Part shown: positions 16,930-21,036 of the stretch, piece after piece
Layout of the letters: each line of letters opens with the position of its first letter
How positions within the stretch are numbered: position 1 is the first letter of the stretch
NCBI GenBank assembly: GCA_944320495.1
Contig: CALUHR010000005.1
Coordinates: 96,001-160,000 of the forward strand
Length of the DNA stretch: 64,000 nt
Origin: Candidatus Methanomethylophilaceae archaeon
GTDB taxonomy: Archaea > Thermoplasmatota > Thermoplasmata > Methanomassiliicoccales > Methanomethylophilaceae
Direction of reading: 5' to 3'
Position numbers and translations under genes: made by a program
Notes under the pieces: generated by a model
Seen by the model: only the letters and a program-made list of their open reading frames with translations
Database searches by the model: none
What the model was told of the DNA's origin: nothing

Positions 16930-16985
16930 CTATCGGTTCGTAGGATGACTCGATCGAGTTCTGCCCTCGTCGAGAACTTGCTGAA

Positions 16986-17206
16986 AGGCGGGAAGTCCGA
17001 GTGCACCGGCTTCTCAACTCTCGGTGCACCCGGAACCGTCCCGGCAGGAGGTGATACGACCCTAGTGATCATCGCTGAAATCCGGAACTCTGGTTCCTAG
17101 TGACGATCGTCACCGGCGGCGGTGTGATCGTCATTGACATTCCGTAAGGAATGCCGAGGTCTGATCCGCCTCAAGGATCCGGCTCCTTCGGGAGCCGTTA
17201 CCTCCT
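16986..17206 (+). ncRNA. Structured RNA module copy 1 (type I toxin mRNA-like, frameshifted mini-ORF)
   Basis: Homologous to the inverted copy at 17473-17699, with compensatory changes in four stems; AGGAGGT at 17046 and ACCTCCT at 17200. Confidence 0.55.
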
Positions 17207-17472
17207 TGGTTCTAGTAATGGACGCGTGCGATATAACAATCTGCCGACAGAGTAACCGCCGGAATACGATTCCCGGATGCCTTGAATCTTCAGAATGCTG
17301 CGCGACCACAGTCCGTTCCGACGAATGAGGACGTCATGGATGCTGCTGTCCAAGAGCTTGAGACCCTACGACACTCTACTCTCGAGGATCGGAATCGATT
17401 ATGTTTAAGGTCCTAGATCATAATTCTTATCGAAGAGCAAGTGTTAATTAGACCCATGCCAATCTCATATCC

Positions 17473-17699
17473 AGGAGGTTGACGGTCCCCGAAGGGACCG
17501 GATGCCTTCAGGGCATCACTCTTCGCCATCCATCAATGGATGACGATGGTGATCCTGACCCTGGGGGTCCTGACCACCACACGAAGCACGCCCCGACGGC
17601 GCTCGATACGGATCTTCAGGATCCTACCAACCTCCTACCGGGACGGTTCCGTGCATGCTGAGAAGGTGAGATGTCACGGCATGCACGGACTTCCCGCCT
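17473..17699 (-). ncRNA. Structured RNA module copy 2 (type I toxin mRNA-like, intact 29-codon mini-ORF 17533-17622)
   Basis: Same layout as copy 1; strong TATA box at 17730-17737 about 25-30 nt upstream. Confidence 0.55.
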
Positions 17700-17729
17700 A
17701 CCAGCGATTCTAGGCCAGTTGTGTATATG

Positions 17730-17737
17730 TTATATAT
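17730..17737 (-). promoter_or_regulatory. TATA box candidate for module copy 2
   Basis: ATATATAA on the minus strand within an AT-rich tract, at archaeal spacing from the module 5' end. Confidence 0.5.
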
Positions 17738-17871
17738 TTATCGAATAGACATCTTTTATCATAACAGAATTCTACTCGATCGATCTGAAACAGCGTCAAT
17801 CCACCGCCCCGAACCGCCGATCGCTGGTTGTTGGGGAACCTACTTATCGAAGCCCGCCTACTCCCGCGCAT

Positions 17872-18219
17872 ATGCGCTGGATGCTCCGCTCCAAGATCCA
17901 CAGGGCCACCGTCACCGAGACCCGCGTCGACTACGAAGGCAGCATAACCGTCGACGAGGACCTCCTGGAACGCTCCGGGATCTGGGTCGGCGAGAAGGTG
18001 ACCGTCGCCGACGTGAACAACGGCAACCGCTTCGAGACCTACACCCTCCCGGGGAGGAGGGGCAGCGGGGTCATCGCGGTGAACGGCGCCGCCGCGCACC
18101 TCTGTGACGAGGGCGACCTCGTCATCATAATGGCGTACGAGCTCGTGGACGAGCCCATCCATGCCAAGGTGCTCCTCGTCGACGGCGACAACAGGGTCTC
18201 CAGGGAGCTGTTGTATTGA
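17872..18219 (+). CDS. panD: Aspartate 1-decarboxylase (pyruvoyl-dependent)
   Basis: [12 protein letters not shown]...YEGSIT self-cleavage motif, [15 protein letters not shown]. Confidence 0.95.
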
Positions 18220-18671
18220 TCTCCGCCTACTCCGACGGGGGCTCCCGCGGGAACCCCGGACCCTCCGCCTTCGCGATAGTCATCGTGAGGGACGGGAAGG
18301 TCGTCCATGAGCACGCGGAGTTCCTCGGCGTCCACACCAACAACTACGCCGAGTACCGCGGATTGATTGCCGCGATATCCAAGGTCATAGAGCTCGGAGA
18401 GAGCGAAGCTGAGTTCGTGATGGACTCCGAGCTCGTCATCAAGCAGATGAACGGGATCTACCGGGTTAGGAATCCCGATATGGCTGCACTCCACTCCGAC
18501 GCGAAGGCGCTCGCATCCCTCATCCCCAAGGTCTCATTCAGGAACATCCGCAGGTCCCAGGAGTTCATACCCAGGGCGGACGCGCTCCTGAACGAGGAGA
18601 TGGACAGGCACCGCCGAGGCGGAGCCCGTCCGGTTTCACTGGGGGGAAGAAGAACCCGGCGGTCATGCTGA
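18216..18671 (+). CDS. rnhA: Ribonuclease HI family protein
   Basis: [36 protein letters not shown]. Confidence 0.92.
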
Positions 18672-18912: not shown

Positions 18913-19204
18913 TCAGGGTGGACGACCGCTTCGTGCAGGACGAGGGATGGTACAGGGCGGCGGAGCGCTACGCCCGGTTCGCCGAGAAAGCCATGATCGC
19001 AGAACGCTGCATCTGGATCTCGGCGTCGGCTACAACACCCCCGGGATCATCAAGTTCCCGTTCCAGAGCATGGCACACGAGAACCCCGAGAGCAGATACG
19101 CCGCCGTGAGCATCGGATCGGCGGACGTCCACTCGTTCCTTCGGGACCGCGGGATCGGCATCGACGCCGACATCGGGAGCGTGCTGGAGGCCCTCTCCGG
19201 ATGA
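18895..19204 (+). pseudogene. 3' remnant of a SirTM-class (macrodomain-linked) sirtuin, frameshifted
   Basis: TMNLRVDDRFVQDEGWYRAAERY, then a frameshift into LDLGVGYNTPGIIKFPF...DADIGSVL; N-terminus missing. Confidence 0.7.
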
Positions 19205-19525
19205 TTCCGCCACGAGCCTCTTGTACCACCAGCCCCAGTCCTCCATCGCGTCGAGGATGGGCGCGAGGCTCTCCCCCAGGGGCGTGAGCGAGTACCCCAC
19301 CCGGGGCGGGACCTCCGGATAGACCGTCCTCGCGATCAGCTCGTTCTCCTCCATGCGGCGGAGCTTCTCTGTCAGGGCCTTCTGCGAGACCCCCGTCACC
19401 GATCTCATGAGCTCGTTGAAGCGCTTGGTCCCCGTGCGCAGGTCGCGGAGGATGAGCACCGCCCACTTGTCGCTGATCAGGAGGAGGGCGGTCTCCACGG
19501 GGCAAGGAGGGAGGTCGGTGATCAT
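18968..19525 (-). CDS. HxlR family winged-helix transcriptional regulator
   Basis: CPVETALLLISDKW...RFNEL...PEVPPRVGYSLT. The C-terminal ~70 aa read through the sirtuin remnant and are probably spurious. Confidence 0.88.
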   Translation of the reverse strand: MITDLPPCPVETALLLISDKWAVLILRDLRTGTKRFNELMRSVTGVSQKALTEKLRRMEENELIARTVYPEVPPRVGYSLTPLGESLAPILDAMEDWGWWYKRLVAESSGEGLQHAPDVGVDADPAVPKERVDVRRSDAHGGVSALGVLVCHALERELDDPGGVVADAEIQMQRSAIMAFSANRA

Positions 19526-19572
19526 GCCCGGGGGATGAGTGGCGTGGTGGTTCCTATGGCGGATGGCGCGGC

Positions 19573-19710
19573 GGGAAAATCCATCAGTGAAATTCGGGAA
19601 ATTCATGGATTGGGATCTGGGAAATTCATGGATTGGGATCTGGGAAAATCCATCAGTGAAAGTTGGGAAAATCCATCAGTGAAAGTTGGGAAAATCCATT
19701 AGTAGAAAAT
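19573..19710. repeat. Six tandem 23-bp units of two sequence types (A-B-B-A-A-A')
   Basis: A = GGGAAAATCCATCAGTGAAA(TTC/GTT); B = GGGAAATTCATGGATTGGGATCT. Confidence 0.95.
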
Positions 19711-19743
19711 GTAATAAAATATCGGACACCTACTGATATCCTG

Positions 19744-21036
19744 ATGACACTTACCAGACCAGGATATCGTCCCCGCCTCATCGACGTAAGCATAGCGAGA
19801 ACGCTACGCACTACGGGAGCGGTTTGCATAGAGGGGCCCAAATGGTGCGGTAAGACTTGGTCGGCCCTCAACCAGGCCAACAGCGCGGTGGATCTTTCCG
19901 ATGCCCGTGGAGACTTCCAGAATAGGAGTCTGGCGGAGACGGATCCGAATCTCGTCCTGGAGGGAGATGCCCCTCATCTGGTCGATGAATGGCAGGAGGT
20001 CCCGAAGCTCTGGGATGCCGTCCGTACAGCTGTCGATTCGGGACAGAAGAAGGGGATGTTCATCCTGACCGGCTCATCGACCCCTGTCCGCAAAGGGATA
20101 CTACACAGCGGCACGGGCAGGATGGCGACGCTACGCATGCATACGATGTCCCTGTACGAGTCGGGGGACTCTATCGGCACCGCCAGCATCTCGGACATGT
20201 TCGGAAACAGATTCAGGAGTTCGAGAACAGGCGATGTGAATCTGCGCGACCTCGTCTACCTGACGGTGCGCGGAGGATGGCCCGCATCCATAGGCGTCGC
20301 GAGAGAGGACGCCTCCATCATCGGCAGGCAGTATCTGGCCTCGATGAGGGATGAGGACTTCGAGAAGATCGACGGCGTCAAGAGGGATGCCGACAAGGTC
20401 AGGATGCTCATCAGGTCCCTGGCACGTAACGAGAGCACCCTTGCATCCAAGAGCAAACTGGCGTCCGACATCAGAGAGGAGGATGATTGGGAACCTGCCG
20501 AGAATACGGTGAATGACTACCTGGGCATCCTGAACAGGATGTTCCTGATAGAGGATCAACCCGCATTCAACCCAGGTCTGAGATCGTCCTACAGGGTGGG
20601 CAAGACCGCCAAGAGGCATCTGGCGGACCCCTCATTGGCTGCGGCGGCGATGGGCGCCGACATCGAGAGCCTCTTCAGGGATCTGAACACCTTCGGACTC
20701 CTCTTCGAGGCGCTGTGCGAACGCGACCTCAGGGTGTACACCCAGTCTCTCGATGGAGTGATGGGGCACTATCGCGACGGTCGTGGGAACGAGATCGACA
20801 CCGCCATCCAGCTCCCTGACGGACGCTGGGGGGCCTTCGAGATCAAGCTCGGGATGAACCAGGTCGACGAGGCCGCCGAGAAGCTGATAGCGTTCACGGA
20901 GAAGATAAGGAGTGACGGCGGAAGAGTCCCGGAGTTCCTCTGCGTGATCGTCGGTCTGTCGTCCTACGCCTACCGCCGCGAGGACGGTGTGTACGTCGTC
21001 CCGATAACCGCCCTCAGAGACCGACGGGCTTCCTGA
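19744..21036 (+). CDS. AAA ATPase with DUF4143 / PD-(D/E)xK C-terminal domain
   Basis: IEGPKWCGKT, LVDEWQ, ILTGSS, EID...AFEIKLG. Confidence 0.9.
   Translation: MTLTRPGYRPRLIDVSIARTLRTTGAVCIEGPKWCGKTWSALNQANSAVDLSDARGDFQNRSLAETDPNLVLEGDAPHLVDEWQEVPKLWDAVRTAVDSGQKKGMFILTGSSTPVRKGILHSGTGRMATLRMHTMSLYESGDSIGTASISDMFGNRFRSSRTGDVNLRDLVYLTVRGGWPASIGVAREDASIIGRQYLASMRDEDFEKIDGVKRDADKVRMLIRSLARNESTLASKSKLASDIREEDDWEPAENTVNDYLGILNRMFLIEDQPAFNPGLRSSYRVGKTAKRHLADPSLAAAAMGADIESLFRDLNTFGLLFEALCERDLRVYTQSLDGVMGHYRDGRGNEIDTAIQLPDGRWGAFEIKLGMNQVDEAAEKLIAFTEKIRSDGGRVPEFLCVIVGLSSYAYRREDGVYVVPITALRDRRAS

Follow-up and report, generated by a model that had tools for sequence, protein, structure and literature searches.

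In the hok/sok system of plasmid R1 and of enterobacterial chromosomes, the mRNA of a small peptide is held inert by pairing between its 5' region and its extreme 3' end, and it is activated by 3'-exonucleolytic trimming. In Helicobacter pylori, where the aapA1/IsoA1 loci are clustered and multi-copy, the aapA1 toxin mRNA of ~250 nt has its Shine-Dalgarno sequence (SD) sequestered by 5'-3' pairing, carries a protective 3' hairpin and is translated after 3' trimming; the IsoA1 RNA is antisense to the 5' part of this message, and AapA1 itself is a hydrophobic helical peptide. A hydrophobic transmembrane-helix peptide is typical, if not universal, for the hok, fst, aapA, txpA, ibs, ldr and tisB toxins. 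We know of no description of long-range SD locking of a small-peptide mRNA in archaea, and of almost no described non-coding or regulatory RNAs in the Methanomassiliicoccales. Here we analyse two RNA modules, in inverted orientation, in a stretch of 64,000 nucleotides (the window) from a Methanomethylophilaceae archaeon (assembly GCA_944320495.1, contig CALUHR010000005.1, positions 96,001 to 160,000), and conclude that they very probably belong to a family of structured, self-locked small-protein mRNAs. The accessible part of PMC12390103 reports toxin-antitoxin (TA) systems of type I from bacteria only, and that of a study of Methanosarcina mazei reports small-protein RNAs with cognate antisense RNAs (bioRxiv 10.1101/2025.10.28.685009).

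A first-pass annotation, made from the letters of the window alone, had correctly assigned the DNA to an archaeon (of the Methanomassiliicoccales) and had described one ordered layout for both modules, which is recovered here apart from the reading frame of copy 1 (Table 1). Each RNA begins with a hairpin whose outer stems are identical in the two copies and whose inner stem differs at 4 pairs, all of them compensated. The SD follows, then a short frame that ends in the loop of a further hairpin, then a 5-bp stem (previously written as GATCC and GATGCC), a GC-rich, UUCG-capped hairpin of 7 bp and, directly after it, an ACCUCCU tail. This tail is at the extreme 3' end of the RNA, and its CCUCC is the partner of the SD in a closing helix of 9 bp in both copies. 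The limits first proposed for the modules have the right location, except that the RNA begins ~6 nt upstream of the proposed left edge, where a conserved GCYG pairs with CGGY. The minimum free energy of copy 1 is -113.4 kcal/mol, to be compared with -82 for shuffled sequences (z = -6.4), and that of copy 2 is -124.8 kcal/mol, to be compared with -90 (z = -6.5); in neither case was any of 200 shuffles as good. When the two copies are compared with each other, 16 of the 64 consensus pairs carry compensatory changes.

A covariance model (CM) built from these two copies finds covarying homologs in the Methanomassiliicoccales, 43 of them full-length in the fetched loci (E values from 1e-19 to 1e-66) and ~150 copies in total. 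Rfam 15 has no match in the region beyond noise at E values up to 10, the hok and other toxin mRNAs, riboswitches, RNase P and SRP included, and the only match in the window at gathering score is a tRNA elsewhere. The copies form an undescribed multi-copy family of structured RNAs of ~230 nt in gut Methanomassiliicoccales, as had been proposed. A likeness of the motif GGGAAGUCC to the CR-I element of RNase P was considered and dropped because no Rfam RNase P match exists at the locus.

The fold is maintained across the family. In the CM alignment of 49 matches, 89.3% of the pair cells hold standard pairs, and sliding the partners by 1-3 columns lowers this to 31-49%. The first figure is favoured by the fit of the alignment to a model made from the two window copies, though the margin is large. 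Double, compensatory changes occur in 49 of the 64 pairs of this alignment, and 0 of 500 shuffles reach the observed values. Support is best, with 93-98% paired, for the hairpin at the 5' end, the long helix in the centre, the hairpin of the stop codon and the two hairpins on the 3' side; helices 14 and 15, which belong to the 3' domain of copy 1, reach 97.7% and 96.9%. The closing helices between SD and anti-SD are 80-94% paired, with some double changes among which are exchanges of GC for AU. With a plain MAFFT alignment of 40 copies as input, RNAalifold recovered just the 5' hairpin and one 3' stem, and the CM-based alignment is needed to see the rest. In the order, a degenerate pattern of the 5' hairpin has ~50 true sites, among which the inner stem covaries freely. 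The apical loop of this hairpin (window positions 17007-17023 on the plus strand and 17678-17659 on the minus strand, together with the homologs) is 73% pyrimidine and 5% G. A second anti-SD in this pyrimidine-rich loop was considered and rejected, since its pairing with the SD is worth -4.9 kcal/mol and that of shuffled loops -5.1 kcal/mol.

The SD of the family, AGGAGGUG, is a perfect complement of the 3' tail of 16S rRNA. In a genome of the same genus and in the complete, single-contig genome G071 the 16S rRNA ends in GGAUCACCUCCU, from which it follows that the SD of copy 1 together with the next base is a perfect complement over 10 nt, and that the 3' tail of the RNA imitates the tail of the rRNA. 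GGAGGUG is over-represented 2.3-fold in the window.

Between SD and stop codon lies a small open reading frame (ORF), which had been described as a frame of ~29 codons with its stop in a tetraloop. This holds for copy 2; in copy 1 the stop is in the loop, but the frame is broken. Counted from 7-8 nt past GGAGG to the stop in the loop, the frame has exactly 29 codons in 24 of the 31 main-group copies, one copy of this group has an in-frame deletion of 3 nt, and over the whole family the length is 27-31 codons. The stop codon at this one loop position alternates between TAA (20), TGA (8) and TAG (1) when it is read from the alignment; an automated call gave 31, 11 and 1, and mis-placed the stop in ~7 divergent copies. 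The two other sense frames are interrupted by stops in 24 of 24 and in 18 of 24 copies. Column entropy is highest in the third codon position, lower in the first and lowest in the second, and for close pairs the ratio of non-synonymous to synonymous polymorphism (pN/pS) is 0.46 in frame, to be compared with 0.86 and 1.42 in the other frames. The ORF is thus under purifying selection, and the effect is specific to one frame, which RNA structure cannot explain.

In the most distant copies, which come from a second carrier family of the order (L066 and L068), an ATG or GTG stands exactly 7 nt past AGGAGG, and the two differ from each other by 8 synonymous and 2 non-synonymous changes. Of 32 distinct copies, 10 have ATG or GTG as first codon, 18 have AUC, 2 have AUA and 2 have ACG, where the last three are each one change away from AUG. 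In copy 2 the start position is within a small hairpin. Taken together, these patterns argue that the small ORF is real. Two other coding possibilities were rejected: an extension of the ORF at its N-terminal side into the 5' hairpin, where the homologs have three different frames, and a conserved protein on the antisense strand, where the open frames of different copies agree neither in frame nor in length (24-99 codons).

The encoded peptides have alternating hydrophobic positions and a C-terminal end of the type I-x-I-D-I-P. AlphaFold2, run on 28 rows, predicts a three-stranded antiparallel sheet with a predicted local distance difference test score (pLDDT) of 95.7, which suggests that the 27-31-residue peptide is a beta-meander and not a membrane helix. 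A Foldseek search of this model against the PDB gave generic beta fragments only, none at an E value of 0.001 or better, and Pfam has no match for the peptides.

Similarity among non-syntenic copies starts 40-85 nt upstream of the modelled RNA and stops 25-50 nt downstream of it, which agrees with the period of ~375 nt in tandem arrays; each module is therefore, as far as can be read from the DNA, a stand-alone unit or gene of ~350 bp. A riboswitch or leader of a downstream gene is rejected on two grounds, namely that the neighbours differ and that similarity ends so soon after the RNA. In ~28 of 40 copies a TTTAT-type TATA box is found at -35/-36, with a CGATA-like or CATG-palindromic motif ahead of it, and its position puts the start of transcription a few nt before the conserved AGAAUGCCG. 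The strong TATA box that had been noticed for copy 2 is where most homologs have theirs, with a predicted start a few nt ahead of GCUG at 17705; copy 1 has no AT-rich box at the TATA position of the homologs. The CATG-centred palindrome is present in 12 of 40 homologs (L023, L031, L033, L040 and L046 among them), at ~10 nt upstream of the TATA box, and is a possible transcription-factor operator. Copies in the genus of the window have CGATA in its place.

At the 3' edge of the unit, a box of at least six A or T at ~+17 is found in 34 of 42 copies, to be compared with 2.8% of random 48-nt windows, and beyond it nothing is conserved. This box may be a promoter that points inward, as discussed below, or could instead be part of 3'-end formation. 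In L023 and L046 (G071:C1 ~1254350-1254950 and 1284220-1285190), the anti-SD pairs, in addition, with downstream sequence in a hairpin, after which comes T5; this could be an alternative terminator fold. In two very tight arrays (L078 in G138:C26 and L079 in G094:C39) the modelled RNAs are only ~42-100 nt apart. One copy in L078 has no TATA-like element ahead of it other than the 3' AT box of the preceding copy, so that in such arrays one box may serve both units.

The element has a patchy distribution. In the Methanomethylophilaceae it occurs in 58 of 151 genomes, with 1-8 copies each and in 8 of 19 genera, and in the genus of the window in 24 of 38 genomes. The second carrier family of the order has it in 3 of 24 genomes, all of one genus, and it was found in none of 47 genomes of a further family of the order and in none of 135 genomes from the phylum's other families. 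The exact pattern has 4 matches GTDB-wide, all of them in the Methanomassiliicoccales. Among the carriers are single-contig genomes of methanogens from human and animal guts, and the sequencing runs that contain the window DNA are of chicken-gut and other metagenome DNA.

Neighbouring genes vary from locus to locus and are often convergent, with no conserved neighbour or target gene; those that recur encode AAA_14/DUF4143 ATPases, a resolvase, a DDE transposase, RloB and a nucleotidyltransferase. For some copies the locus is syntenic between species, and arrays have periods of 270-440 nt. The six copies of G071 are arranged as tandem arrays of two and of three, with a period of ~370-376 nt, and one solitary copy. 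A search of viral contigs with an exact 22-nt core and a blastn search of plasmids gave no match. In being multi-copy, patchy, often tandem and inserted in conserved synteny, the elements behave like selfish or defence-type accessory modules.

In the window both modules are within one insertion, as follows from the fact that the ATPase gene and panD on its two sides adjoin each other, with 55-150 nt between them, in four element-free genomes of the same genus. The conserved 5' motif has only two sites in the 64 kb, which are the two copies, and shuffled sequences gave none; a similarity search of the 1.77-Mb assembly did not find a third copy. The description of the pair as duplicated tail-to-tail is inexact. 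The copies are 79-80% identical, and in a tree of 43 copies they belong to different sublineages, copy 1 clustering with copies of G148 and G150 (support 96/89) and copy 2 with copies of G157 and G159 (support 98/94), which means that the pair is not a recent inverted duplication. Copy 2 is intact and would be the working gene. Copy 1 is degenerate: a deletion of 1 nt leads to an early TAG in the start-proximal frame and to an upstream TGA in the stop-proximal one, and SD and stop are 93 nt apart, compared with 94 or 95 in intact copies. Copy 1 has lost promoter, start position and reading frame and has kept its fold. A 9-mer that contains a palindrome, CTCGATCGA, is found at 16949-16957 and 17775-17783, close to the two edges of the insertion, and nowhere else in the 64 kb, a third match being the same site on the opposite strand. 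The pair could mark a target or recombination site that was duplicated, or could be due to chance; ~3 occurrences are expected in the window.

Table 1. Positions in the window of the insertion and of the parts of its two modules.
Feature	Position	Strand	Remarks
Insertion of ~0.9 kb with both modules	16930..17835		From the end of the ABC-transporter ATPase gene (16929) to the leaderless panD promoter and gene (ATG 17872)
Copy 1, structured RNA, fold intact, degenerate as a gene	16980..17212	+	CM match 16984-17212, 247 bits
Copy 1, 5' hairpin with conserved asymmetric internal loop	16989..17043	+	From the fold
Copy 1, SD AGGAGGUGA	17046..17054	+	AGGAGG at 17046-17051; closing helix 17045-17054/17198-17208
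Copy 1, remnant of small ORF	17059..17147	+	ACC at start position; family stop TAA 17145-17147 in hairpin loop
Copy 1, hairpin with stop codon in tetraloop	17134..17157	+	Helix 13, 94.6% of cells paired family-wide
Copy 1, 3' domain	17163..17208	+	5-bp stem 17163-17167/17175-17179; UUCG-capped 7-bp GC hairpin 17180-17197; anti-SD tail 17198-17208
Copy 1, 3' AT box (TATA-like)	17230..17237		~18 nt beyond modelled RNA end
Copy 2, 3' AT box, weaker	17443..17452		Family box at ~+17 in 34 of 42 copies
Copy 2, structured RNA, intact	17468..17705	-	CM match 17468-17701, 267 bits
Copy 2, 3' domain	17472..17517	-	5-bp stem 17517-17513/17505-17501; UUCG-capped hairpin 17500-17483; anti-SD tail 17482-17472
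Copy 2, stop-codon hairpin	17546-17523	-	TGA in loop; from the fold
Copy 2, small ORF	17533..17622	-	29 codons (17622-17536) and TGA stop 17535-17533; first codon AUC, 8 nt past AGGAGG
Copy 2, SD region	17627..17637	-	AGGAGG 17636-17631; pairs with 17482-17472
Copy 2, 5' hairpin	17639..17696	-	From the fold
Copy 2, TATA box, CGATA BRE-like motif (B recognition element) ahead	17729..17739	-	-35/-36 from CM start, as in ~28/40 homologs

How such a module would work can be sketched as follows. Its product would be a highly structured mRNA of ~230-260 nt for a beta-sheet protein of 27-31 residues, transcribed from a BRE/TATA promoter that sets the start just ahead of a conserved GCCG. The RNA folds into the conserved 5' hairpin and then into a multi-helix domain closed by pairing of the SD with the CCUCC tail, and in its full-length form it would be translationally silent. 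Removal or displacement of the last ~10-15 nt, which make up the 3' tail, would open the SD; this may happen, for example, by 3'-exonucleolytic trimming that is halted at the GC tetraloop hairpin, as in the hok and aapA1 mRNAs. The 3' AT box would be an inward promoter, from which an antisense RNA would run from the anti-SD across the 3' hairpins; this is the weakest point of the scheme.

In such a scheme the family shares with hok the inert small-peptide mRNA whose 5' region pairs with the extreme 3' end, and hok loci, like the archaeal ones, are multi-copy, patchy and in part decayed. There is, however, no similarity in sequence or in Rfam, and no overlapping mok-like frame is seen in the family. 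Whereas Sok overlaps the 5' leader, the sole candidate antisense promoter of the family is at the 3' end, and whereas Hok is a membrane helix, the family has a predicted beta-meander, an archaeal host and TATA/BRE promoters. The aapA1/IsoA1 loci have in common with it the SD lock by 5'-3' pairing and the 3' hairpin in a toxin or peptide mRNA, and they too are clustered and multi-copy; they differ in that there is no sequence relationship and that the 5' loop of the family has no CU-rich co-transcriptional anti-SD beyond base composition. If the 3' AT box is directed inward, the family would also resemble txpA/RatA and bsrG/SR4 of Bacillus subtilis, where the antisense RNA is convergent and overlaps the 3' end of the mRNA, but the Bacillus toxins are membrane peptides, the antisense RNA of the family is hypothetical, and its SD lock is made by the 3' tail of the mRNA itself. 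Among the archaeal categories described, the closest is that of the M. mazei small-protein RNAs, which, in the accessible part of the study (bioRxiv 10.1101/2025.10.28.685009), have antisense partners but belong to another methanogen order, are single-copy and are regulated by conditions, in contrast to multi-copy, covarying RNAs with a 5'-3' SD lock.

The best overall explanation, to which we give about an even chance, is that the modules encode a self-locked small-ORF mRNA that is most likely part of a type I TA-like module. Three traits of type I systems are found: a small protein on its own short mRNA, an SD sequestered by a 5'-3' lock, and an accessory, multi-copy and patchy distribution. 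Of the first proposal, a type I TA-like or small-peptide riboregulator, the SD-lock design and the conserved small ORF stand; the peptide does not fit it, since it lacks the transmembrane-length hydrophobic stretch that is typical of type I toxins and is predicted to be a beta-sheet, unlike the products of hok, fst, aapA and txpA. Membership of the type I class is not claimed, because toxicity and antitoxin are putative and the hydrophobic helix is missing. That the modules serve addiction or defence, with a beta-sheet peptide instead of a membrane helix as effector, is a tentative suggestion, at best an even prospect. The complete scheme, in which a hok/aapA1-style self-locked mRNA, an antisense RNA from the TATA box at the 3' edge and a beta-meander effector make up an addiction or anti-virus module, the first type I TA-like family in Archaea, is possible but doubtful.

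Several observations, besides the missing hydrophobic helix, weigh against the TA-like explanation. Hydrophobic and charged residues alternate in the peptide; in most copies no uncharged run exceeds ~6 residues, and the net charge ranges from -5 to +8, which suggests weak constraint on the polar face. Over all pairs the in-frame pN/pS is as high as 0.70, with 0.92 and 0.95 in the other frames, and about two thirds of the copies, copy 2 included, have no canonical start codon. The perfect fold of copy 1 in spite of its broken ORF hints that the RNA itself is under selection. At the 3' edge, a position weight matrix of the 5' promoters orients the AT box one way in 22 copies and the other way in 20; in G054 a run of T8 lies on the antisense strand between the box and the element, by which an inward promoter would be hindered there; and a run of T4 or longer, for termination in the sense direction, is present in just 13 of 42 copies. 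Transcript ends, antisense RNA, 3' trimming and translation are all things that we infer from the DNA.

The alternative that survives best is a non-toxic small-protein gene, where the self-locked and stable message is for a 29-residue beta-sheet regulator or adaptor with no role in addiction or killing. The coding signal and the confidently modelled beta-meander fit this as well, the lack of the hydrophobic helix of type I toxins speaks for it, and weak or near-cognate starts together with SD locking would suit any protein that is made conditionally and in low abundance; pairs of small-protein RNA and antisense RNA are, moreover, known from archaea, as the accessible part of one study reports (bioRxiv 10.1101/2025.10.28.685009). 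However, presence in only 24 of the 38 genomes of the genus, diverged copies that number 1-8 in a genome, arrangement in tandem, decay of several copies and insertion in otherwise syntenic regions are typical of selfish or defence modules, and a conserved neighbour or target gene, on which a regulator could act, is absent. We regard such a gene as rather unlikely.

Next comes a primarily non-coding or dual-function RNA, where the folded RNA is what is selected, for example as a protein-binding or ribosome-related molecule with the 5' hairpin loop as its active part, and where the ORF is secondary or in large part a by-product of GAUC-rich helices. The most conserved sequence of the family is in fact the non-coding 5' hairpin, and an intact fold persists together with a broken frame in six or seven copies (among them copy 1 of the window, L047, L048, L054, L057 and L062). 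The scarcity of canonical starts, the only moderate constraint on the protein, whose charge is not conserved, and the mimicry of the 16S tail by the 3' tail would also be expected. What such an RNA fails to account for is the frame-specific excess of synonymous changes, 8 to 2 between L066 and L068, as RNA structure alone favours no frame. The same holds for the fixed length of 29 codons with in-frame indels only in intact copies and stops alternating at one position, and for the exact spacing of 7 nt between the SD and an ATG or GTG in the lineages that diverge most. With these facts on the other side, a primarily non-coding or dual-function RNA is improbable.

Least probable by far is a miniature inverted-repeat transposable element (MITE)-like repeat or a phage or plasmid remnant with hairpins that are DNA-level repeats, since the copies, while multi-copy, patchy, often near contig ends, in some cases accompanied by transposase or resolvase genes and in the window flanked by the pair of 9-mers, show around 39 of them no terminal inverted repeats or target-site duplications above chance (outside tandem arrays, flank repeats do not exceed those of shuffles in length, so that the MITE with target-site duplications named beforehand finds no support), have compensatory changes that preserve the stems of one strand, possess their own promoter, SD and ORF, lack matches among the viral contigs and plasmids searched, and are in several cases syntenic between species.

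Even apart from the nature of the effector, the self-locked small-ORF mRNA adds a large class of structured RNA to the Methanomassiliicoccales. If the TA-like explanation is correct, the family would be the first of its kind in Archaea, with a 29-residue beta-meander as a new kind of effector. Whether or not the peptide is toxic, a concrete question can be put to experiment, namely whether a tail that mimics rRNA keeps archaeal ribosomes off an SD. The ~150 natural variants with strong covariation provide a ready structure model, and the mini-protein has a confidently predicted fold. The use of AUC, AUA and ACG as archaeal starts and the role of accessory small proteins in host-associated methanogens are likewise open to test.

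Some further features of the locus may be recorded. Between the convergent copies there is a spacer ORF of 26 codons (17336-17416, plus strand), which begins with ATG, has GAGGA 4 nt upstream and has no match in Pfam. The panD gene is apparently leaderless, with a TATA box of the type TTAT/TTTAAC ~24 nt before its ATG, both in the window (17843-17875) and in four congeners (L073, L075, L076 and L077). On the 3' side of panD follow an RNase H/RVT_3-like protein (18216-18671), an HxlR-type regulator on the other strand (18968-19606) and an AAA_14 and DUF4143 ATPase (19663-21036). At least three other genomes (L042, L052 and L053) have a member of the same ATPase family within 1-2.5 kb of the element.

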